Both the position numbers and the translations under genes were made by a program. Shown here piece by piece: positions 7,872 to 17,599 of a stretch of 64,000 nucleotides of DNA. The notes under the pieces are model-generated. The model did not search any database and had not been told where the DNA came from. It saw nothing but the letters and a program-made list of their open reading frames with translations. Location of the stretch: the IMG/VR virus record IMGVR_UViG_3300005096_000137, positions 64,001-128,000 of that record, one strand, 5' to 3'. Source of the stretch: a virus. Within the stretch, counting starts at the first letter, position 1, and each line of letters opens with the position of its first letter.

Positions 7872-8507
7872 GTGTTGAATCGACGTGACTTGTTAAAGAT
7901 GTTCGGCGTGGGGGCAGTCTCAGCCACCATCCCAGCATCCCTCTCTCGGGCTGTGGTTCCTAAGAACGAGATTGTTGAGGTGCCTTGGCAGGAACCTCCT
8001 GAGGCGGCACCCTTTGGGTTCGCTGACCCTCCCCCGAAACCAGATGAACTGGATGACCTGGTTGAGAACCTGCCCGTCCCGGCTCCCGTCGATGCAGTTC
8101 ATGAGAGCCTCAGGGGTCAGGGGTTAGTCAGGCTGGATGAACATGGTGTGGTTACGTTTCACAACACCAATACTGACGAGAAGGTACATCTCAAAATACA
8201 CGAGGGTTCCATGGCCTATGGGCAAAGTATGGATGTGCAGTTTAGTCATGACCGAGGTCGACTGACTGTGCCGAATGCCAGCCATGGTCCCCTAGAGGTC
8301 AGTTTGTACGCACGTATTGCAGAAGTGGTCTCCCCTAACCCTGGTTGGCTTCAGACAATTCGGAGTGCAGGTCCAGAGGGCCTGGATATGATCATCTCGT
8401 TGCCGAACTCTGACCTACTGGTACTGTTTTCCAGGTTGGTGTACCAGTCGATGTCTCTCGACCCCAAAGAAGGGCTATTTGAAATTGAAGGGGTATGCTA
8501 CAATTGA
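7872..8507 (+). CDS. Tat signal peptide protein with probable tail-tube-like domain
   Basis: NRRDLLKMFGVGAVSA, Pro-rich linker, beta-rich domain (LKIHEGSMAY...DRG.L...PLEVSL...FEIEGVC). The tail tube assignment is inference. Confidence 0.6.
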   Translation: MLNRRDLLKMFGVGAVSATIPASLSRAVVPKNEIVEVPWQEPPEAAPFGFADPPPKPDELDDLVENLPVPAPVDAVHESLRGQGLVRLDEHGVVTFHNTNTDEKVHLKIHEGSMAYGQSMDVQFSHDRGRLTVPNASHGPLEVSLYARIAEVVSPNPGWLQTIRSAGPEGLDMIISLPNSDLLVLFSRLVYQSMSLDPKEGLFEIEGVCYN

Positions 8508-9379
8508 GCTATGATTATGAAGTTGCTGGGCATGTCTACGTCGTCCCACTCCATGACATCTACGTGGACCCTGATTTCAATTGCCGGGGTGCATTTGCTC
8601 CTCATGAAGTTCACGGACTTGGTCAGAGTATCTCGGAAGAAGGTCAACGGGCTCCCATAGTTGTCCAACCTCTGGACGACGTCCCTGGACCAGAGCAGCC
8701 CCTGGGTGACTGGACCTTTCGTTTGATCGCCGGACATCGCCGCTACATGGCAATCGATAAATGGTCTACGGGTACTACTATCAACTGTGTGGTGGAGAGG
8801 GGACTGACCCGTGAACAGGCTTGCACTCTTAACTTCTCAGAGAATCTCCAGAGAAAGGACCTGAACATCTTGGAGGAGGCTCGCGCACTCCACCGCACCT
8901 GGCCAATCCAGTCATTGGGCATGATCTCAAAACTCATTGGGAAACCTAAGAAGTGGATCCACGCTCGCCGGATGCTCCTCCAGCTCCCTGATTACGTCCA
9001 GACACGGGCAGCCAGTAACGGTATTTCCCAGTACGATATCCTAATGCTTGCCAAACTCCCGCCCGACAGGGTGGAGGCAGCCTACGAGAAGCTGACTTCG
9101 TCAAAAGGAAAGACGGGGCGACGACCAGTGGTAGCCGGCAAACAGAAGTGGAGAAACCGACCTCGGGGAATCAATGAAATCTCAAAGATGGTCGCATTCC
9201 TGCTCCGCCACCAGCGATTCTCAGAACTTTCCGAAGCCGAAATTACTCTGGTCACGTCAACCCTGGTCTGGGTCACTAAAGGCATTGACGCACAGGAGTT
9301 ACTAGAGAACAGGTTTGGCTTCCCCGAGGGCAGCGTGGCTATCGATTCCACTGACGAAATTGAGGGAATGAAAGATTAG
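8495..9379 (+). CDS. ParB/Spo0J-like protein
   Basis: FNCR, GQRAPIVV, LIAGHRRYMA, NFSENLQRKDLNILEEA, then HTH. Confidence 0.88.
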   Translation: MLQLSYDYEVAGHVYVVPLHDIYVDPDFNCRGAFAPHEVHGLGQSISEEGQRAPIVVQPLDDVPGPEQPLGDWTFRLIAGHRRYMAIDKWSTGTTINCVVERGLTREQACTLNFSENLQRKDLNILEEARALHRTWPIQSLGMISKLIGKPKKWIHARRMLLQLPDYVQTRAASNGISQYDILMLAKLPPDRVEAAYEKLTSSKGKTGRRPVVAGKQKWRNRPRGINEISKMVAFLLRHQRFSELSEAEITLVTSTLVWVTKGIDAQELLENRFGFPEGSVAIDSTDEIEGMKD

Positions 9380-9404
9380 CCGCAGGTTTTATTGAAATTG
9401 GTTC

Positions 9405-9432
9405 TTGACTTCCCGGACCCATCGAGTATACT
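9405..9432 (+). promoter_or_regulatory. sigma70-type promoter for the ncRNA array
   Basis: TTGACT-16-TATACT. Confidence 0.75.
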
Positions 9433-9542
9433 TGGTAATAGAACGTGCCAAAGATTCAAGACTAATTCCAGCCAAAAGAGCTGGTGAACTCTAACTTGAG
9501 GACAGAACGATGTAGTTGGCTGGGTGAAAGCCCAGCACCCTT

Positions 9543-9667
9543 GGAGGGGTAGCTCAGTTGGTAGAGCGCCAGTAGCATAAAAACAGTTGTGACAAACTTG
9601 CTATTAAGCCGAACATAGCTGATTATCTCGGAACTGGATGTCGCGGGTTCGAGACCCGCCCCCTCCG
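9543..9667 (+). ncRNA. tRNA-shaped RNA with a Y-RNA module replacing the anticodon loop
   Basis: Acceptor GGAGGGG/CCCCTCC, D arm GCTC-AGTTGGTA-GAGC, stem CCAGT/ACTGG, T arm GCGGG-TTCGAGA-CCCGC. The 59-nt insert contains CAGTTGTG/CATAGCTG, ACTTG, AAGCCGAA and TTATC. Confidence 0.85.
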
Positions 9668-9669
9668 CT

Positions 9670-9734
9670 GCCTAAGCCGAAGTCAATGCGTTATCTTTCA
9701 TATGATTACCCGCACCGACATTCACTTGCCAGGC
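9670..9734 (+). ncRNA. minimal Y-RNA-like stem-bulge RNA
   Basis: GCCT/AGGC, AAG/CTT, unpaired CC, GAA/TTC, GTC/GAC, TGCG/CGCA; loop begins TTATC. Confidence 0.8.
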
Positions 9735-9759
9735 TATTTTAGATGTAGACCAATACTTT

Positions 9760-9878
9760 ACGGGGGTAGCTCAGTTGTTAGAGCACCAGCTCGGGCCATT
9801 ACGACAAACTGTCCGGACAGTCTTGTATAACGGGTCACAGGGAGCTGGGGGTCGGTGGTTCAATTCCTCCTCCCCGTA
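9760..9878 (+). ncRNA. tRNA-shaped RNA with a long hairpin in place of the anticodon loop
   Basis: Acceptor ACGGGGG/TCCCCGT, D arm GCTC/GAGC, CCAGCTC/GAGCTGG, T arm GGTGG-TTCAATT-CCTCC. Insert hairpin ACAA-ACTGT-CCGG-ACAGT-C-TTGT. Confidence 0.8.
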
Positions 9879-9883
9879 CTACT

Positions 9884-9949
9884 GCCTAAGCCGAAATCAA
9901 TGCGTTATCTTTCATATGATTACCCGCATTAACATTCACCTGCTATGGC
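9884..9949 (+). ncRNA. minimal Y-RNA-like stem-bulge RNA (copy 2)
   Basis: Near-identical to 9670..9734 with stems retained (AATGCG/CGCATT). Confidence 0.8.
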
Positions 9950-10037
9950 GTTTTGAGTGTAGACCACGGACTACGAGCATCTTAGGCTGCTTATGGCCCT
10001 GGGGTCTCAGTTGTAGTTCAAGTCTGCCGCACTCACC

Positions 10038-10109
10038 TTGGGCGAAGCCGCAGCTCATGCGTTATCCTTGTAAGATTTGCCGCATACAGCATCGACTTGC
10101 TAAGCCCAA
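10038..10109 (+). ncRNA. minimal Y-RNA-like stem-bulge RNA (diverged copy 3)
   Basis: TTGGGC/GCCCAA closing stem, AAGCCG, GCT/AGC, ATGCG/CGCAT, TTATC, ACTTG. Confidence 0.75.
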
Positions 10110-10200
10110 TAATACAAAGTCCCCGCCTTCGGGTGGGGCGTTCGCACAAAGTCCCTGTCCGCCCTTATGGCGGGCAGGGTAGTGATTCAAGGAGAGTAAT

Positions 10201-10572
10201 GTGTCTGATTACGATGAGTTTGAATCTGAGTTTGAAGCCGAGGAATTCAAGGCAGAAATCAAACAGATGCAAGCAGAGTCGCAAGGGGTGGCTCTAGACC
10301 ACGCAATTTATCGAGAAGCTTCACAGCATGCTGTGTTTGATGAATGGCAGATAGTCTCTTTATTGAACCAAGATGCCTACTTCGTGGATGGTTGTGATCT
10401 GGAAGCTGATCCCAAGACAGGTAAGTGTGTCTGTGTGATTCTCCGAGAGAAGGATGAGGGTACTGGTAAAATGTGTAACCACTATTATACACTGAAGAAT
10501 GCCCTGATCCGCCTCCGTCACATAACGCCCAACTTGTTCCTCGCGAACGTGAAGGGGCAATCGGATGACTGA
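10201..10572 (+). CDS. hypothetical protein, PxLF-motif paralog 1
   Basis: AAGGAG RBS; YTLKNALIRLRHITPNLF. Confidence 0.7.
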   Translation: MSDYDEFESEFEAEEFKAEIKQMQAESQGVALDHAIYREASQHAVFDEWQIVSLLNQDAYFVDGCDLEADPKTGKCVCVILREKDEGTGKMCNHYYTLKNALIRLRHITPNLFLANVKGQSDD

Positions 10573-10891
10573 CTCCAAGATACCAACCGAGTTGGAATTG
10601 GCTGAAAAGAAGTACCATTATTTAGTGATTCGAGAATCCATTTTGAAAGCCGCGAAATCACACCGGGTTTACTGGCCATTGCAGATTCTCCTACTTCTTA
10701 GGGACCAAGCTTATATTGAAGGTGGCTATGGTGGCAATTCATATGAGATTCCTTCTGGTGTGGTGCGCGTGAATCTGGATGTAAAAACCTTGAATCCTAC
10801 CAGTCCGGCGAAAAGACTCTATTCTTTAGATCGTGTTATGAAACGACTTCGGCAAATTCATCCAAGTCTATTTAACCTGGGGGTTGAATAA
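10565..10891 (+). CDS. hypothetical protein, PxLF-motif paralog 2
   Basis: YSLDRVMKRLRQIHPSLF. Confidence 0.7.
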   Translation: MTDSKIPTELELAEKKYHYLVIRESILKAAKSHRVYWPLQILLLLRDQAYIEGGYGGNSYEIPSGVVRVNLDVKTLNPTSPAKRLYSLDRVMKRLRQIHPSLFNLGVE

Positions 10892-10896
10892 CCAGA

Positions 10897-11463
10897 ATGA
10901 ACTTTCAGAATACGACTGGGAATTATGCCATTGCAGCCGGTCTGGCCGCTTCTGCGCATACTAAGCAACGTCGGAAAGACCCTGATAGGACCCCCTACAT
11001 CAATCACCCACTTGAAGTTGCCGTCCTCTTAACATATGATGGGCAAGTGGATGATGTGGATACTCTGATCGCAGCAGTCCTTCATGATGTTGTGGAAGAT
11101 ACAGATATCACGCTAGGTTTTATCTTCACCCTGTTTGGTCCCCGAGTGAGGGACATCGTGGCCGAGGTTACTGACGACAAGTCGCTCCCGAGTGCAACAA
11201 GGAAGCAACTACAAATTGACAACGCCCCTGGTAAGTCAGACGCCGCCAAGATGATTAAGATCGCGGATAAGATAGTCAATATCCAAGACATGAGCACAGA
11301 GTCCCCTGTTGGCTGGTCGACTGACCGGAAGTTCGAGTACATTGATTGGGCGACGAAAGTCGTGGCAGGTTGTGCCGGCGTGAATTCTAATTTGGATGCC
11401 ATATTTCACAGTGCGGCTATCCAAGCCAAAGCCAACTGTACTACTGTTGGGAACCATGAGTAA
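10897..11463 (+). CDS. HD-domain small alarmone hydrolase (MESH1/SpoT-HD-like)
   Basis: PYINHP, AAVLHDVVEDT, EVTDDKSLP, RKQLQI, IKIADK. Confidence 0.9.
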   Translation: MNFQNTTGNYAIAAGLAASAHTKQRRKDPDRTPYINHPLEVAVLLTYDGQVDDVDTLIAAVLHDVVEDTDITLGFIFTLFGPRVRDIVAEVTDDKSLPSATRKQLQIDNAPGKSDAAKMIKIADKIVNIQDMSTESPVGWSTDRKFEYIDWATKVVAGCAGVNSNLDAIFHSAAIQAKANCTTVGNHE

Positions 11464-11526
11464 CCTCAATTCTACACGGTAACTCTCCGAGGGTTACTGT
11501 GCAAACTTTATGATTGGAGACAGAGA

Positions 11527-11844
11527 ATGGCAATTACTTTAGACACCACCTATCACGGCGTAGTTCAAGAGGTCCGTAACCTAAGCTACCAATGGGCAGA
11601 CAATTTGGTCGCCCTCTTGATTGTCGAAGCGGCTATGAAGCAAGGGGCTTTTAATCCACAGCAGGTCCGGGTACTTTTAGCAGACGGAGCCACGACTAAT
11701 CCTAATGTCAATCCTCATTTTGGATTACCTCGGGACTTTGAGGTCCGGATAAGTAACAGCCACACAGGGGGTGTCGGGATGTCTCTTGAACAGGCAGTGA
11801 GTTACTTGAAAGAGACCCAGCCCAATTTGTTCCTGGCTGACTAA
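11527..11844 (+). CDS. hypothetical protein, PxLF-motif paralog 3
   Basis: GGAG RBS; MSLEQAVSYLKETQPNLF. Confidence 0.7.
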   Translation: MAITLDTTYHGVVQEVRNLSYQWADNLVALLIVEAAMKQGAFNPQQVRVLLADGATTNPNVNPHFGLPRDFEVRISNSHTGGVGMSLEQAVSYLKETQPNLFLAD

Positions 11845-11851
11845 TACATGT

Positions 11852-11984
11852 AGTCCAAGAGCAACGGAATCAGAACCGAATAATGACTCTAAACTGAATC
11901 GACAAATCTGACCACCCTGGGTGGAGTCCGAGAGCAACGGAATCAGAACCGAATAATGACTCTAAACTGAATCGACAAATCTGA
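11852..11984 (+). repeat. two 60-bp direct repeats separated by a 13-nt hairpin
   Basis: Copies at 11852-11911 and 11925-11984 differ at one base; spacer CCACC-CTG-GGTGG. Confidence 0.95.
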
Positions 11985-11990
11985 ATCGAT

Positions 11991-12137
11991 GCGACTGTGG
12001 TGTAATGGTAGCACACATACTAACTAGGTTGTCAATAACTTGCGCAGAAGAAGTACCTTCGGGGAACCACGCTGAGCCGAATGTTAACCGTTATCTCTTG
12101 CACGAGTGTGGACTAGGTTCAATTCCTAGCAGTCGTT
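11991..12137 (+). ncRNA. tRNA-shaped RNA with a Y-RNA module in the anticodon position, directly upstream of Ro60
   Basis: Acceptor GCGACTG/CAGTCGT, D arm GTGT-AATGGTA-GCAC, CATACT/AGTGTG, T arm CTAGG-TTCAATT-CCTAG. Insert contains GGTTG/TAACC, ACTTG, a cTTCGg hairpin, GAGCCGAA and TTATC. Confidence 0.85.
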
Positions 12138-12165
12138 TTAACAATTTCACTGGAGAACTGAAATC

Positions 12166-13740
12166 ATGTCCTACTCAACTGATATTGGTCGAACTGATCA
12201 AGTTACTAACAACCAAGGTGGTCGTGTCTTCCAGATTGACTGCTGGGCACGCCTAGAGCGGTTCCTCATTCTTGGACACGAGGGTGGGAGCTACTACGCC
12301 GAGCAGCAGAAGCTGACTCTTGAGACAGTTGTTTGTATTGATGAGTGTCTGGCTGAAAGTTCGTACCTCATGGTGAAGGCTATCGTGGACATCAGCCAAT
12401 CAGGACGGGCTCCAAAGAATGACCCGGCCATCTTTGCGCTTGCCTACGTAGTGTCAAAGAAGGACGAGTCATCCCAGTATGCGCTCAAGTTTCTGGGGGA
12501 TGTGTGTCGGATTGGGACACATCTTGCTCAGTTCCTAAATCACTGTAAGAACCTTGGCAGAGGTTGGGGTCCATCATTCACGCGGGCAGTTGCTGAGTGG
12601 TACAACCGTGATCCAGAACGGCTTGCCATGCAGGTGACAAAATACGCGAACCGAAAAGGGTGGACACATCGTGACATTCTCCGCAAGGCGCACCCTTCGT
12701 CCAAGGATAAGAAGCTTGACAACATCTTCTGTTACCTGACCCAACATGCGAAGTGGTCACGCCGGAAGAACTCGGGACCTGCTGATGAGTTCCTGTGTGC
12801 GGTGGATGAAGCTAAGGACTCAAAAACGACCGTGGCTCGGCTCGTGGAACTAATTCAGTTGTATGGGCTGGTGCGCGAGCACATGCCAACCAATGCTTTG
12901 AACAATCGAGAAGTCTGGATGGCGCTGCTTCAAAACATGCCACTCACGGCAATGATTCGCAACCTGGGTAAGATGTCCAGCATTCGACTCCTCACACCCC
13001 TGAGCACTGGTTCAAAGCTGGTGCGGTCTGCACTCGAAGACTCTGGAAACCTAAAGAAACAACGGGTTCATCCCTTGTCATTACTGATTGCGCTCAAGCA
13101 ATATGGCGAAGGTCAGGGTCTTCGTGGCTCCCTTACTTGGGACCCTGTCCCACAGATTATGACAGGCTTGGACAATGCCTTCTATGAGGCGTTTGACTTC
13201 GTGGAGCCGACCAATAAGAACCACCTCCTAGGTGTTGATGTCTCAGGCTCTATGGACTGGACCAACTGTGTTGGGGCAGGTGTTCTCAAATGTTCCGAGG
13301 GTGCAGCAGCTATGGCTATGCTGGCAGCTCGGACAGAAGAGAACACGCACGTCTTTGGTTTTGCCGACGATTTCCGTGACCTGGGTATCACTGCTTCAGA
13401 TTCCTTGCAGACTGCATTGAAGAAGACCGAGACTGGGACCTTCGGCGGTACGGATTGTGGACTCCCCATGCACTACGCCGCCAATCATGGGATTGAGGTG
13501 GATGTGTTCTGCGTCTACACGGACAATGAAACGGGTGGTGGCTACTACAGTCGGACCAAGGACCCACACCAGGAACTTGAACGCTACCGGCAGACAATGG
13601 GACGGGACGCTAAACTGGCAGTGTTCGGGATGGCACAGAACGAGTTTAGTGTTGCTGATCCTAAAGACGCTGGGCAAATGGACTTTGTTGGATTTGATGC
13701 GTCGGCTCCAACTTTACTTGCGAACTTCGTTCGTGACTGA
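12166..13740 (+). CDS. rsr: Ro60/Rsr ortholog (TROVE + vWA domains)
   Basis: NNQGG..F, RLERFLILGHEGGSYY, KYANRKGWTHRDILRKAHP, MPLTAMIRNLGKM, MIDAS DVSGSM, GGTDC, YTDNET, GFD. Confidence 0.95.
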   Translation: MSYSTDIGRTDQVTNNQGGRVFQIDCWARLERFLILGHEGGSYYAEQQKLTLETVVCIDECLAESSYLMVKAIVDISQSGRAPKNDPAIFALAYVVSKKDESSQYALKFLGDVCRIGTHLAQFLNHCKNLGRGWGPSFTRAVAEWYNRDPERLAMQVTKYANRKGWTHRDILRKAHPSSKDKKLDNIFCYLTQHAKWSRRKNSGPADEFLCAVDEAKDSKTTVARLVELIQLYGLVREHMPTNALNNREVWMALLQNMPLTAMIRNLGKMSSIRLLTPLSTGSKLVRSALEDSGNLKKQRVHPLSLLIALKQYGEGQGLRGSLTWDPVPQIMTGLDNAFYEAFDFVEPTNKNHLLGVDVSGSMDWTNCVGAGVLKCSEGAAAMAMLAARTEENTHVFGFADDFRDLGITASDSLQTALKKTETGTFGGTDCGLPMHYAANHGIEVDVFCVYTDNETGGGYYSRTKDPHQELERYRQTMGRDAKLAVFGMAQNEFSVADPKDAGQMDFVGFDASAPTLLANFVRD

Positions 13741-13742
13741 AT

Positions 13743-13922
13743 ATGACGAATAACGAAGACAGCATGACATGTTCCCAATGGGCAGAAGCACATCGAGCCA
13801 ACCCCACTGAGGACACACAAACTCCATCCCCGGAGTTGTTGCGAGTCCTAGAGTGGCAGCGTGAGCAGCGGTCAGTTCGCTGGTTCATAAAGTGGTTGTT
13901 CTCGGATAACAATAATCGCTAG
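13743..13922 (+). CDS. hypothetical 59-aa protein (not in ORF track)
   Basis: ATG 2 nt after the Ro60 stop, open to TAG. Confidence 0.4.
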   Translation: MTNNEDSMTCSQWAEAHRANPTEDTQTPSPELLRVLEWQREQRSVRWFIKWLFSDNNNR

Positions 13923-14006
13923 GAGGTGCCCAATGGTCCCTCTTTGGCCATGCGGTGCTTAGCACCCCGGCTGGACATATCAGTGTGGTTGGTCGCCACG
14001 AGTAGG

Positions 14007-14041
14007 GAGCCAGGTAGATTCATTTCTATCTGGCTCTTTTT
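14007..14041 (+). terminator. intrinsic terminator (first copy of a duplicated cassette)
   Basis: GAGCCAGGTAGA-ttcatt-TCTATCTGGCTC followed by TTTTT. Confidence 0.85.
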
Positions 14042-14046
14042 ATGCC

Positions 14047-14075
14047 TTGCCCAGAACCCCAGCTTCGATTAGAAT
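14047..14075 (+). promoter_or_regulatory. sigma70-type promoter
   Basis: TTGCCC-17-TAGAAT. Confidence 0.6.
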
Positions 14076-14114
14076 GGAGGGGTACCATTTCAACGCCACA
14101 ATGAGGATCAAACT

Positions 14115-14657
14115 ATGATATCTCCAGAGACCCGTGCCCACTTCGCCAAAGAGACCCAGCAGATTAAAGACATGGGGTTCAAGTATGAATTCGCGGACTA
14201 TCCGGCGATTGACGATGGCGGCTGCGACTATACTGGTGTCACCCTGAGTCGGACTGGTTTCGGACGATTGAGTGATAAGTTCACCCATGAGGAGGGGTGG
14301 GGTGTTTGTCCTGGAACCTTCTCCCGTGTGAGACACAATCTATTGATTCTGGTTTCAAAGACCTTTAGGATTATTACACCAGAGATGCACAGGTGGCATG
14401 GTCGCGACAAGTGGGGTCCTAAATTCAGTCCGTTCCCATCTGGGGTCAAGGGGTTTACTGGCATTCACACTCGGGAAGGGTGTGAATTGGCTTGGGCTCA
14501 GCTTCAGTATTTAGGTGTTACAACTGATGAATTCTACGAAATAGCAGAAATCCTGGACGCACCCCGGGTCTTTTATTTGGCTCCGGCTGATCCACCGCCA
14601 GCTACAGACCAGTTTCCCTTGTTCAATGCTATCCGTCGAGGGTTCCAATCCAAGTAG
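14115..14657 (+). CDS. hypothetical protein (moron-like unit)
   Basis: GAGGA RBS; own promoter and terminator. Confidence 0.7.
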   Translation: MISPETRAHFAKETQQIKDMGFKYEFADYPAIDDGGCDYTGVTLSRTGFGRLSDKFTHEEGWGVCPGTFSRVRHNLLILVSKTFRIITPEMHRWHGRDKWGPKFSPFPSGVKGFTGIHTREGCELAWAQLQYLGVTTDEFYEIAEILDAPRVFYLAPADPPPATDQFPLFNAIRRGFQSK

Positions 14658-14681
14658 TTAATTCAATCCGGACAGGATGCT

Positions 14682-14715
14682 GAGCCAGGTAGATTCATTT
14701 CTACCTGGCTCTTTT
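14682..14715 (+). terminator. intrinsic terminator (second copy)
   Basis: GAGCCAGGTAGA/TCTACCTGGCTC followed by TTTT. Confidence 0.85.
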
Positions 14716-14720
14716 ATGCC

Positions 14721-14748
14721 TTGACCTTACATCGGCTTCGATTAGAAT
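14721..14748 (+). promoter_or_regulatory. sigma70-type promoter for the polymerase operon
   Basis: TTGACC-16-TAGAAT. Confidence 0.7.
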
Positions 14749-14803
14749 GGAGGGATACCATTTCAATGCCAGCTCTGGGCAAACAAGAGCATAGGAGACA
14801 CTC

Positions 14804-17599
14804 GTGACAGCAGCCATTGATCCGAACGTTCCAGATAATTCTGAGTTCGTCCCCAAAGTATTCATTCAACCCAAGTTCGTCCTTGACGATGTCCGTGACC
14901 AGCTCAAGGTTGGTTTCGACATTGATGCCATTCAGAGGGAAATCGACGCGGGTGCAAAGACATACATCGATAGCGAGACCTGTGGTCTCCACTCCATGAT
15001 GGTCCTCTGGCAATTTGCCATTGATGAAGGACCTATCTACCTCTACCACATCTGGAAAGAACCTGTCTGGAAGACCATGCGGCTCTTCGAGATGCTCATG
15101 GGTCTGGACTACGTGGGGTTCAACCTCTCTTTCGATCACTTCCATGTGGCTAAGATTTACACCATTTGGGAGCGGCTGCCCAAGGACTGGATCCCCGAGG
15201 AGCACATTCTCGATATCGCCATCAATCATGAAGCTCAGGCTCAGATGGGTTCCTGTATCAAGCCTAAACGGGCATGTGACCTAATGCTGTGGTCACGTAA
15301 GGGTAAATTCCAGTCGGCGATGCAGCGTGGAAGTATCCGCATCCGGCGGGTACCCACCATACTATCATATGCCCTCGCGCGAGAATTAGGTCAGCGAGTT
15401 GAGTTGCCAGAGATTTGCTTTGCTAAAGCTCAGGACCCCAAGGGAAACCAGTGGAAGGTCCTGGACCGGGAAGACAAGGAAGGTCTAATCGACGAGCACT
15501 TCAAGGACGTCTCGCTGCGGTTCAACCCCGCCGGCGGTTTGAAGTACCTCACGGAATATGCACTCGGTTGGAAACCCAAGTACCACTTCACGGACGTCGA
15601 GCTTCCACGGACCATGAGCCCACCAGACAAGAAGCTGGGGTATATTCCCACAGCACTCGGCATGGCGCCCGGTGGGGCGGAGGACGATTGGCGGATGTAT
15701 GACAAGCACGGTAAGGAAATCGGACATGCCTGGCCATACTGGATTCAGAAACACATTGATCACTGGGTTGATAGTGAGAAGGCCCAGGAGTACGCCTACG
15801 AGGATATCACGTACACCCGGGCAATGTCTCACTACTTTGAAGACCCTGAACCTGGGGACGATGATAGTGAGTTGGCTTGCATGGTGGGCATCGTTCGCTG
15901 GCATGGCTTCGAGACAAACGATGATGGTCTCCGGGAACTTTGTGTCCTTGCTCAGGCTGAGCTGGATGCCTCTCCAATCAATTGCAATAAAGTTTGGGAA
16001 GTGCGGCGGTTCATTACAGACGCCATGGATGTCGAAGAGGCGGTGATGATCGAGCAGACGACTGATAAGAAAGCCCTGGAGCAAGTAACCAAGTTCCACT
16101 TCGACGAGAATGAGGATGGAGAAGAATGTACCAAGTGTGAGGGCGAGGGTGTCTATCTCCGGGAAGGTACAAAGAACTACCCGGAAGAAGAGATTACGTG
16201 TGTTCGTTGCTCAGGTAACGGGGTAATTGATGCGAGCAAGTCTCCTATCTTTGACCCAACTGGGGGGATTCGGGTGGGCAACCACCCCGCTGCCTTCCGT
16301 GCGCGTCAGCTCTTAGATGTCAAAGCCGCCGTGAAGGAAGTTGAACTTTACAACAAGCTCTTGGCAGCCGGCAAGTTCCATCCCGACTTTAACGTCATTG
16401 GTACATTGAGTACTCGAATGTCCGGCGGCTCCGGGCTGAATGCCCAGGGTATCAAGCATGATAAGTCTGTGCGAAGGATGTTCCCTCTGATGTGGGAGGG
16501 TATGATGCTGAGCGGGGGTGACTTTGATTCATTTGAAGTCGCGATTGCAGCCGCTGTCTATAAGGACCCAGACCTTGTCAATGCTCTGACAAAGAAGGTC
16601 GAGTGTGACGGTTGCAAGCATGGCAAGACCTGTGAGAAGTGTGGTGGGACTGGTCAGGTCGGCGAATTTGAGTGTGTCCACTGTCAAAAGGACGAGAACG
16701 GGACCACAGGTATCCGGAACTGTAAACTCTGTGGGGGCAGCGGAATCTTCCGGAAGAAACTCCACGCCCTGTTTGGGACCGCTCTTTACCCACATGCGTC
16801 CTACGAGGACGTGGTGGACTCTGATGGTACCAGCACAGACATGTACACGGCTGGTAAATCTGGTGTGTTCGCGCTTCTGTATGGTGGTAATTGGGTAACT
16901 CTGGTGAAGAACCTTGGTATCCAAGAAGAGCATGCTCAAGAGGCAGAAGAACGTTTCCTGAAGATGTTCCCCGGTATCCTAGAAGCACGGAAGTTGATTG
17001 AAGATCAATTCCAGAGTATGAAACAGGTTGATGGTCGCCAGATAGTCTGGAGTGACCCCAAGGAATATGTGGAATCACTGCTTGGGTTCCGACGCAGCTT
17101 CGAGCTGGAGAACAAGGTGTGTAAATGCCTGTTTGACCTGGCTCACAATCTGCCACCTAAGTGGAAGGGTAACCAGTGTAAGGTCAAGGTGGTTCGCTCG
17201 CTCGCCAAAGGGGTTCAAACCGCCGGGGGTGCCGTTGCCTCATCCTTGTTTGGTGCTGCCTTCGGGGTTCAAGGCTCCAACGTGCGAGCAGCCGCCAATC
17301 ACCAGATTCAATCGTTAGGGGCAACCCTCTGTAAATTGTTGCAGAGATCCCTGTGGGATTTACAACCCTCGGGGGTGGGGAAGTTGATTATGGCTCCCAT
17401 AAATGTCCACGATGAAGTTCTTTGCGTTATTGATCCGATTTTAGTTGACACCGCCGCCGCTGTGGTCGTCCGTATCGTCGAAGGGAATCGGAAGACTGTA
17501 CCTCTCCTAGGTCTTACCTGGACACTCGATATGGCTAATTGGGCAGAAAAGAAGGGTGGGGCAACCACTCTGAAGATAGCCCCACCGGAGATGAGATGA
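14804..17599 (+). CDS. polA: family A DNA polymerase with 3'-5' exonuclease and CxxCxGxG Zn-finger insertions
   Basis: Exo motifs IDSET, GFNLSFD, YAYED; motif A GDFDSFEV, motif B KSGVFALLYGG, motif C NVHDEV. Confidence 0.92.
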   Translation: MTAAIDPNVPDNSEFVPKVFIQPKFVLDDVRDQLKVGFDIDAIQREIDAGAKTYIDSETCGLHSMMVLWQFAIDEGPIYLYHIWKEPVWKTMRLFEMLMGLDYVGFNLSFDHFHVAKIYTIWERLPKDWIPEEHILDIAINHEAQAQMGSCIKPKRACDLMLWSRKGKFQSAMQRGSIRIRRVPTILSYALARELGQRVELPEICFAKAQDPKGNQWKVLDREDKEGLIDEHFKDVSLRFNPAGGLKYLTEYALGWKPKYHFTDVELPRTMSPPDKKLGYIPTALGMAPGGAEDDWRMYDKHGKEIGHAWPYWIQKHIDHWVDSEKAQEYAYEDITYTRAMSHYFEDPEPGDDDSELACMVGIVRWHGFETNDDGLRELCVLAQAELDASPINCNKVWEVRRFITDAMDVEEAVMIEQTTDKKALEQVTKFHFDENEDGEECTKCEGEGVYLREGTKNYPEEEITCVRCSGNGVIDASKSPIFDPTGGIRVGNHPAAFRARQLLDVKAAVKEVELYNKLLAAGKFHPDFNVIGTLSTRMSGGSGLNAQGIKHDKSVRRMFPLMWEGMMLSGGDFDSFEVAIAAAVYKDPDLVNALTKKVECDGCKHGKTCEKCGGTGQVGEFECVHCQKDENGTTGIRNCKLCGGSGIFRKKLHALFGTALYPHASYEDVVDSDGTSTDMYTAGKSGVFALLYGGNWVTLVKNLGIQEEHAQEAEERFLKMFPGILEARKLIEDQFQSMKQVDGRQIVWSDPKEYVESLLGFRRSFELENKVCKCLFDLAHNLPPKWKGNQCKVKVVRSLAKGVQTAGGAVASSLFGAAFGVQGSNVRAAANHQIQSLGATLCKLLQRSLWDLQPSGVGKLIMAPINVHDEVLCVIDPILVDTAAAVVVRIVEGNRKTVPLLGLTWTLDMANWAEKKGGATTLKIAPPEMR

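Follow-up and report, generated by a model that had tools for sequence, protein, structure and literature searches.

What does the noncoding RNA (ncRNA) stretch that precedes the Ro60 gene of a large uncultured phage encode, and how would its RNAs relate to the Ro60 protein? Ro60 and Y RNAs are conserved from bacteria to humans, and both the role and the origin of the transfer RNA (tRNA)-like domain of bacterial Y RNAs are at issue. The phage is the IMG/VR record IMGVR_UViG_3300005096_000137 (148,427 bp, rated complete by CheckV). We analyzed its bases 64001-128000, i.e., the 64,000-nucleotide (nt) stretch hereafter called the window, and coordinates refer to the window unless stated otherwise. 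The ncRNA stretch lies after a ParB-like gene (8495-9379) and before the gene for a full-length Ro60 (12166-13740), with a family A DNA polymerase next. The original prediction had described the beginning of this stretch as an array, behind one promoter, of tRNA-like RNAs and small Y-like RNAs (mini-Ys), the latter possibly released by ribonuclease P (RNase P) and ribonuclease Z (RNase Z) at the tRNA-shaped units. This interpretation is supported by the results below. We consider it likely that the locus is a promoter-driven array of Ro60 partner RNAs, in which one docking module is presented in two topologies and cleavage at tRNA bodies frees the mini-Ys. Transcription of the array RNAs, their binding to Ro60 and their cleavage by RNase P and RNase Z are what we infer from sequence.

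The docking module and its two topologies

The recurrence of a motif set, claimed to occur five times, was borne out. The pattern AGCCGMA-N9-TTATC has five exact matches in the window, all on the + strand (at 9607, 9675, 9889, 10046 and 12075, spanning 9607-12095), compared to 0.26 expected in shuffled sequences; none of 100 shuffles reached five, and the whole 148-kb phage contains these five matches only. Each match has an AC(T/C)TG partner, which lies downstream for the three free-standing copies (9724, 9938 and 10095) and upstream for the two copies within tRNA bodies (9596 and 12038). The copy at 9607, previously taken to be a separate mini-Y, is located within a tRNA-like RNA (C1, see below). 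What had been missed is that two of the five copies are circularly permuted Y modules built into tRNA bodies, and because of this the tRNA-shaped units are probably Ro60 partners themselves, not only processing guides.

The five copies represent one module. Its lower helix, N3-5 C[C]GA / UUG N3-5, is read as C-G, a single bulged C, G·U and A-U. A single unpaired base leads to the upper helix, which is ~9 bp long and mismatched at its center, and (G/A)UUAUC comes next. TTATC is present in 5/5 window modules, and TTA[TC]C is invariant in alignments A1-A3; GCCGAA occurs in four of the window modules and GCCGCA in the remaining one (Y3), all of them 0.03-2.6 kb upstream of Ro60 on the + strand. 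The module occurs in the following two topologies: (i) a linear one, in Y1-Y3, in which the 5' strand comes first and the lower helix is closed by the RNA ends; (ii) a permuted one, in C1 and C3, in which the order begins with the 3' strand (ACUUG), the lower helix ends in a short cap that is UAUUAA in C1 and a cUUCGg hairpin in C3, and the upper helix continues into the anticodon stem of a complete tRNA body, the 7-bp acceptor stem of which is open.

The three mini-Ys are stem-loops of 65-72 nt, all on the + strand. Using a covariance model of the mini-Y (R1, the E-values of which are rough), we obtained 68.1 bits for Y1 (9670-9734; linear order GCCGAAG..GUUAUC..loop..CACUUGC), 62.0 bits for its paralogue Y2 (9884-9949), and 48.0 bits for Y3 (10038-10109), a GCCGCAG variant that also matches the motif and has an apical AUC-CUUGUAA-GAU hairpin; R1 matches nothing else in the phage. 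This apical hairpin of some mini-Ys resembles an anticodon arm, with a 3-bp stem AUC/GAU and a 7-nt loop that reads CUUGUAA in the window (Y3, 10061-10077) and CUUCUAA in the syntenic relative L128 (5925-5940).

Chimera C1 (9543-9667, + strand; 52.6 bits with the Rfam tRNA model, 59-nt insert) is a tRNA body in which a permuted Y module replaces the anticodon loop. It consists of a 7-bp acceptor, a D arm, a CCAGT/ACTGG anticodon stem and a T arm, and its Y module includes CTTG (9597-9600), the cap, CCGA (9609-9612) and TTATC (9623-9627), with 8/9 bp formed in the upper helix. Chimera C3 (11991-12137, + strand) is a second tRNA body, with a GTGTAATGG D arm, 7/7 acceptor and 5/5 T-stem pairs, a 7/9-bp Y helix and an insert of about 85 nt; its 3' end is 28 nt from the Ro60 ATG. 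A third tRNA-like RNA, C2 (9760-9878, + strand; 47.4 bits, 52-nt insert), has a tRNA body with a D loop without GG and an extended 52-nt hairpin, and shares GACAAACUG with C1. The acceptor, D and T arms of C1 and C2 score above the gathering score of the Rfam tRNA model (RF00005). The 7-nt decoding anticodon loop is absent from all three RNAs, the inserts (59, 52 and about 85 nt) standing in its place, and an anticodon-like hairpin looked for in C1 and C3 was not found.

The predicted order of elements, i.e., tRNA-like RNA, mini-Y and linker, all three repeated, then a hairpin element, a mini-Y and two hairpins, is correct. The acceptor stems of the tRNA bodies are 7 bp long, their T loops are standard and CCA is not encoded; mini-Y stems begin 2-5 nt past the discriminators of C1 and C2, and 0-3 nt past the discriminator in the phage and bacterial loci L123, L127, L131, L186, L193, L170, L142 and L156. 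On these grounds, RNase P and RNase Z would be expected to mature the chimeras and to free the mini-Ys. The true tRNAs of this phage are 71-88 nt long and located elsewhere: at least 11 tRNA genes of ordinary length that exceed the Rfam cut-off lie upstream of the window, at 39.1-61.7 kb of the record. The long-insert tRNA-like genes of the Ro60 locus are therefore a distinct set.

Y1 with its tail and Y2 with its tail constitute a tandem duplicate of ~90 nt that is roughly 85% identical. The linker sequence TGTAGACCA, reported as a repeated feature, does recur (9744-9752 in the tail of the Y1 unit, and 9958-9966, + strand); it is, however, part of the duplicated unit, so that its recurrence is not independent motif evidence, and as such evidence for a processing signal it was ruled out. 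The sequence GTAGACCAA also comes after a mini-Y in L128 (5838).

Conservation among syntenic phages and in bacterial Ro60 loci

Relatives were obtained through the closest Ro60 proteins (58-64% identity) in a protein database; on ten contigs, the order is ParB, gap, Ro60, PolA. A blastn search of GenBank phages with the locus and a single-protein Ro60 search of viral contigs yielded no relatives. The ParB-Ro60 gaps of all ten syntenic phage loci are filled with the same modules, about 37 in total, with the consensus GACCGAAG..GGUUAUC..AUAACUUGUC. The observation that pairing strands differ between copies and still pair was confirmed across 39 modules: the upper-helix strands pair with their own partners at a mean of -9.6 kcal/mol, compared to -5.5 kcal/mol with the partners of other modules (z = -11.4; 0/20000 permutations), and the preference is valid separately for 17 linear and 22 permuted modules.

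Covariation is strong for every helix, as seen in mini-Y, C1 and C3-type alignments from the homologous loci, on which the earlier proposal had been made to depend. For the chimeras, a hand-drawn structure with slid and shuffled controls was used because MAFFT plus RNAalifold alone under-called the Y arm. In 15 aligned mini-Ys, 82% of cells are paired, compared to 35-43% in the slid controls, and 14/18 pairs show compensatory changes. Nine C1 orthologues (cloverleaf plus Y arm) have 86% of cells paired (slid controls, 32-49%) and 18/35 compensatory pairs, with all helices supported; for nine sequences of the C3-type tRNA body, the values are 97%, 33-51% and 8/16. None of 500 shuffles reached the observed score in any of the three alignments. 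The core C-G / bulged C / G·U / A-U is invariant in 15/15 aligned mini-Ys and 9/9 C1 orthologues. The insert is the most conserved part of C1 among its orthologues, with CTTG, CCGA and GTTATC invariant and compensatory changes present. The docking helix reads AGC/GCU in the window and GAC/GUC in the relatives, which represents a G-C to A-U swap.

This conservation all but disposes of the view that C1-C3 are decoding tRNA genes with a removable intron-like insert, or decayed pseudogenes with a functionless repeat, which we hold to be extremely improbable: the Rfam tRNA model does score C1 and C2 above gathering with an "intron-like" gap, but removal of the insert leaves C1 and C3 without an anticodon loop, the insert of 52-59 nt has no group I features and no Rfam intron match, it is the most conserved part and carries compensatory changes, the true tRNAs of the phage are short and lie elsewhere, and 86-97% pairing across nine diverged phages would not persist in pseudogenes.

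The relatives contain further forms. A free-standing permuted Y hairpin, CCCAUCU..ACYUUGUC-cap-GACCGAA..AGAUGGUUAUC, without a tRNA body, occupies a promoter-proximal position in L123 (3558-3639), L124 (4843-4929), L130 (4947-5027) and L132 (5232-5311), with none in the window; it is a third presentation of the docking module. A hairpin TTGACG-RYGGGAA-N-GCGTCAA follows the first chimera in six relatives (L125 ~4822, L127 ~245, L128 ~5700, L129 ~4940, L130 ~5300 and L131 ~1310) and has no counterpart in the window; these arrays probably include it as a further class of ncRNA. A scan of viral contigs with the exact pattern AAGCCGAA-N9-GTTATC gave >117 single matches, which we attribute to chance because none is near a Ro60 gene and none has a convincing partner strand.

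Beyond phages, R1 matches about 49/80 bacterial Ro60 loci at E 1e-3 or better. All of these matches are on the Ro60 strand, just upstream or downstream of the gene and mostly at a distance of 200 nt or less, in Verrucomicrobiota, Planctomycetota (including the cultured Limnoglobus roseus), Chloroflexota, Armatimonadota and Myxococcota. Bacterial Ro60 loci also contain many Rfam tRNA matches of 117-130 nt, the inserts of which carry CTTG..CCGA..GGTTAYC, i.e., tRNA-order chimeras, which also lie beside Ro60 in L. roseus (PX52, locus L186), and YrlA-like RNAs of canonical order coexist in the same loci. Because R1 matches and chimeras are common there, the tRNA-order and mini-Y kind of RNA is widespread and not phage-specific.

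Three side observations concern these bacterial loci. First, many of the chimeras (in L141, L143, L150, L156, L158, L163, L182, L185, L188, L193 and L202) have, after GGTTATC, a stem of 3-5 bp that carries a 7-nt loop like that of an anticodon arm (U33, A37), e.g., TCGA-CTGTTAA-TCGA, with varied "anticodons" (GTT, CAT, TTT, GCT, TCC, GAT and others); their predicted folds are those of complete tRNAs into which an additional arm of the Ro60 type is inserted between the D and anticodon arms. Second, the Ro60 gene of Polyangiaceae and other Myxococcota, of Armatimonadota and of some Chloroflexota (L143, L150, L171, L185, L202, L166, L194 and L188) is embedded in dense same-strand arrays of tRNA genes of ordinary length (71-75 nt); no paper that connects such arrays with Ro60 was found. 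Third, a loose regular-expression survey suggests tandem runs of up to about eight candidate Y/YrlA-like units, 120-160 nt each, downstream of Ro60 in Chloroflexota and others (L148 4650-5998, L149, L151, L152, L137, L162 and L210).

Known Ro60 partners, proposed processing and competing explanations

YrlA RNAs have the conserved docking-strand motif GNCGAA, members being recognized by GNCGAAN0-1G, encoded no more than 4 kb from Ro60 and on its strand (PMC4201824). The array RNAs resemble this family (RF02553; Salmonella, Mycobacterium smegmatis, mycobacteriophages) in that they lie within 4 kb of Ro60, on its strand, and carry a GNCGAA docking strand. In C1 and C3, moreover, a tRNA-like domain (T arm, D arm, acceptor), which is absent from Y1-Y3, is attached to the docking helix at the position of the anticodon stem, and the connectivity is identical to that of YrlA: docking 5' strand, T arm, acceptor, D arm, docking 3' strand. 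The difference is in where the RNA is open. YrlA, which has been likened to a tRNA that is circularly permuted and has a closed acceptor loop (bioRxiv 10.1101/312249), ends in the Ro-binding stem and has its acceptor closed by a loop, whereas C1 and C3 have an open 7-bp acceptor and a loop-capped docking helix. Judged by predicted structure, C1 and C3 are the YrlA connectivity in the other circular permutation. Both docking strands and UUAUC are kept in them, whereas in Salmonella and M. smegmatis YrlA the 5' strand alone is recognizable.

Like the metazoan Y RNAs and stem-bulge RNAs (sbRNAs; RF00019, RF01656), Y1-Y3 are end-closed stem-loops: the lower stem has a single bulged C, an upper stem follows, and the loop carries UUAUC at its 5' edge. 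RF01656 represents the Caenorhabditis elegans stem-bulge RNAs CeN72 and CeN74-2, which are Y-RNA homologues (PMC4450293, PMC4726728), and the nematode sbRNAs are defined by these same features, i.e., a bulged C in the lower stem, an upper stem and UUAUC at this edge of the loop (PMC4450293). Unlike these RNAs, Y1-Y3 have no requirement for an oligo-U/La tail and a predicted polycistronic origin of bacterial type, as opposed to Pol III transcription, and they are shorter than most animal Y RNAs. The Thermus phage phiLo encodes Yrl1 and Yrl2, which bind phage Ro60 and host PNPase in vitro (PMC12135203). The likeness is in phage-encoded Y-like RNAs that lie upstream of the phage Ro60 gene and carry a CGAA motif (PMC12135203); however, the two phiLo RNAs are of the stem-bulge-stem type and tRNA-ordered chimeras have not been described for that phage, compared to five docking modules and a motif-less tRNA-like RNA here, and the phiLo Ro60 is too distant to show up in a sequence search of PDB. 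Full-text literature searches found YrlA, phage Y-like RNAs (mycobacteriophages, phiLo) and the RNase P/CCA processing of M. smegmatis YrlA; open-acceptor tRNA-Y chimeras were not found there, though some reviews may mention them.

Processing of non-tRNA RNAs that is punctuated by tRNAs is known from mitochondrial transcripts, the MHV68 tRNA-miRNA units and MALAT1/mascRNA. The array resembles these systems in that tRNA-shaped units are flush with other small RNAs in one transcript, so that RNase P and RNase Z cuts would set the ends of the neighbors; it differs in that the units that punctuate it seem to function as Ro60 partners in their own right. The following course of events can be proposed. 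A host-type promoter at 9405 would produce a long transcript that starts with the array of Ro60 partner RNAs and probably continues through small open reading frames (ORFs), a hydrolase gene of the HD type, one more partner RNA and finally Ro60. Cleavage at the tRNA bodies by the host enzymes RNase P and RNase Z would mature these bodies and free the abutting mini-Ys; since no CCA is encoded, it would be added to the tRNA bodies after cleavage. In M. smegmatis, RNase P cleaves YrlA, which also acquires CCA (PMC4201824). Each RNA would then dock on the phage Ro60 ring through its bulged helix, whereas its other end (tRNA body or small loop) would select a partner, and the RNA would gate the ring or tether a host factor, candidates being a 3'-5' exoribonuclease or a tRNA-binding protein. 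Known Y RNAs gate or tether in this way, and in Deinococcus and phiLo the partner selected is PNPase (PMC4201824; PMC12135203). The outcome would be several differently equipped Ro60 particles during infection, and the element adjoining the Ro60 start may additionally act in cis.

A number of results weigh against this proposal. C2 has a hairpin of 12 bp or more without the CCGA/UUAUC docking motif, so a role as Ro60 partner cannot extend to all units. The lower helix of the window modules is interrupted past the G-C pair, with 2-3 continuous pairs, compared to 4-6 in the relatives. The Rfam tRNA model does not call C3, and ARAGORN finds no tRNA in the window, calling none of C1, C2 and C3. 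Tight abutment of a tRNA-like end and a mini-Y was found in only about 10/86 cases of the loose survey. Two GC-rich hairpins without a T-run (10121-10138 and 10153-10179; together 10121-10179, + strand, fold -39 kcal/mol) could stop part of the transcripts, which makes a single transcript through to Ro60 a tentative assumption; as terminators, these hairpins were not called in a terminator scan.

Comparison with the Rfam models, proposed as a check, gave a divided result. In the window, the best YrlA score is 18.2 bits (9517-9567), compared to a gathering score of 69, Y1 aligns to RF01656 over its full length at 22.1 bits, compared to a gathering score of 38, and RF00019 (Y_RNA) has no match; these results, too, count against the proposal. 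The YrlA model also has no matches in 10 phage or 20 bacterial loci, and because it missed canonical-order examples in related bacteria, a low YrlA score alone proves little. The mini-Ys of the syntenic relatives, aligned end-to-end, score 41.3, 37.1 and 36.9 bits with RF01656, and syntenic and bacterial counterparts taken together score 36.9-42.8 bits, several of them above the gathering score.

The best surviving alternative, which we nevertheless regard as improbable, is that the modules act mainly in cis, i.e., that Ro60 binds the Y-type helices of its own polycistronic messenger RNA, chiefly the element next to its start codon, and autoregulates translation or operon stability without the RNAs being freed. 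The short distance between C3 and the Ro60 ATG is consistent with this, as is the lack of a terminator between the array and Ro60. Seven relatives have a short mini-Y without UUAUC (GAAAGCCGAARGTCRCACGG..ACTTGYTTTC; also given as GAAAGCCGAARGTC..ACTTGYTTTC) that directly abuts the Ro60 ribosome-binding site GGAGATTACA (L123 4240-4290, L124 ~5930, L126 129-182, L127 ~1410, L130 ~5940, L131 ~2833 and L132 ~5920), and this element may be a cis autoregulatory site; in the window, C3 occupies its position. However, most modules are 2-2.7 kb upstream of Ro60, or downstream of it in many bacteria, and therefore unable to occlude its start site. An operator would not need full tRNA bodies with 7-bp acceptor stems, and known Y RNAs are free RNAs (PMC4201824). 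Action in cis can hold for the Ro60-proximal element alongside an array of freed partner RNAs.

The second alternative, to which we give little credence, is that the tRNA-shaped RNAs serve, as decoys or sponges, to titrate tRNA-targeting host factors (anticodon nucleases, CCA-end modifiers), with the mini-Ys as unrelated passengers and Ro60 docking secondary. Complete tRNA bodies without an anticodon loop could bind tRNA-recognizing proteins without being decoded or cut, a SpoT/MESH1-type HD hydrolase is encoded in the same operon, and the phage has 11 or more ordinary tRNAs elsewhere, phage-carried tRNAs being a known means of replacing damaged host tRNAs. Conversely, decoys would have no reason to retain the exact Ro60-docking core and UUAUC, which are invariant in chimeras and mini-Ys; the chimeras are linked to Ro60 genes across phyla; and the HD gene is missing at this position in 10/10 relatives.

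If the array is one of Ro60 partner RNAs, as we prefer, a broader and more tentative proposal can be considered, which we think rather unlikely to hold in full. The tRNA-ordered Y RNAs would be a widespread undescribed class with tRNA-like maturation (RNase P, RNase Z, CCA), the tRNA body of which takes the Ro60 ring to the tRNA-handling machinery (exoribonucleases, the ribosome, tRNA-targeting defence toxins); they would be ancestral to YrlA through tandem duplication and trimming, and in this phage their tRNA bodies would also punctuate the transcript to release mini-Ys of the animal type. The locus and its relatives bring together three forms of the docking module (bare stem-loop, canonical YrlA order and true tRNA order), and the docking core and UUAUC match animal Y RNAs. 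The evolutionary series implied would be one in which a tRNA gains a Ro60-binding arm, with YrlA as a permuted derivative. The RNAs provide a natural set for binding and structural work, with cultured carriers such as L. roseus. For annotation, the implication is that such genes are missed or called intron-containing tRNAs.

Promoter, leader and neighboring elements

The promoter postulated before the array is a sigma-70-type element, TTGACT-16-TATACT (9405-9432, + strand), with 10/12 matches, the best in 9300-14900; a TTGAC..TAnnnT promoter is in the same place, directly after ParB, in L124, L125, L129, L130 and L132. The region is gene-free, as had been stated: between 9380 and 10200, the only ORF of at least 50 amino acids (aa) has a TTG start, spans the RNAs and has no Pfam match. 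A protein-coding reading of 9775-10182 was rejected, with no family match and no gene call there in the relatives.

Directly 5' of C1 lies a leader element (9498-9536, + strand) that consists of a Shine-Dalgarno (SD)-like GAGGA, an ATG-TAG start-stop (9510-9515) and a GC hairpin (9519-9536). A leader box GGGAGRCAGAACRATG with a hairpin is kept before the first chimera in L123 (~3675), L124 (~4965), L125 (~4618), L127 (~5), L128 (~5500), L130 (~5060) and L132 (~5350). In this box, a strong SD and an ATG are followed at once, or nearly so, by a stop and then by a GC hairpin; the box may represent a mini-ORF of the start-stop type or an RNA motif. The hairpin element between Y2 and Y3 (9960-10026, + strand; minimum free energy -23.9 kcal/mol) has no sequence relative among the ten syntenic loci.

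Between the array and C3 (10201-11844, + strand) are two small ORFs, an HD_4 (SpoT/MESH1-type) hydrolase gene (10897-11463; E 1.5e-13) and another small ORF. The RelA/SpoT-type, MESH1-like hydrolase thus sits between array and Ro60 in the window, the position at which the ten relatives lack it. Just upstream of C3 are two 60-nt direct repeats with a period of 73 (11852-11911 and 11925-11984; 11852-11984 overall, + strand), each with a box TAAACTGAATCGACAAA. The box has no other site in the phage and is kept before ncRNA units in L128 (5878), L131 (2173) and L132 (5469); because in the phage it is confined to this locus, it was rejected as a phage promoter.

The Ro60 protein itself (12166-13740, + strand; 524 aa) has the TROVE and vWA domains (Pfam 2.5e-51 and 1.6e-35). 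In the PDB search, it matched human and Xenopus Ro60 at E about 1e-110 and Deinococcus radiodurans Rsr at 2.5e-105, so that it is as similar to the animal proteins as to the Deinococcus one. The first strong intrinsic terminator downstream, found in the terminator scan, is at 14682-14711 (+ strand) and has a 12-bp stem followed by TTTTAT.

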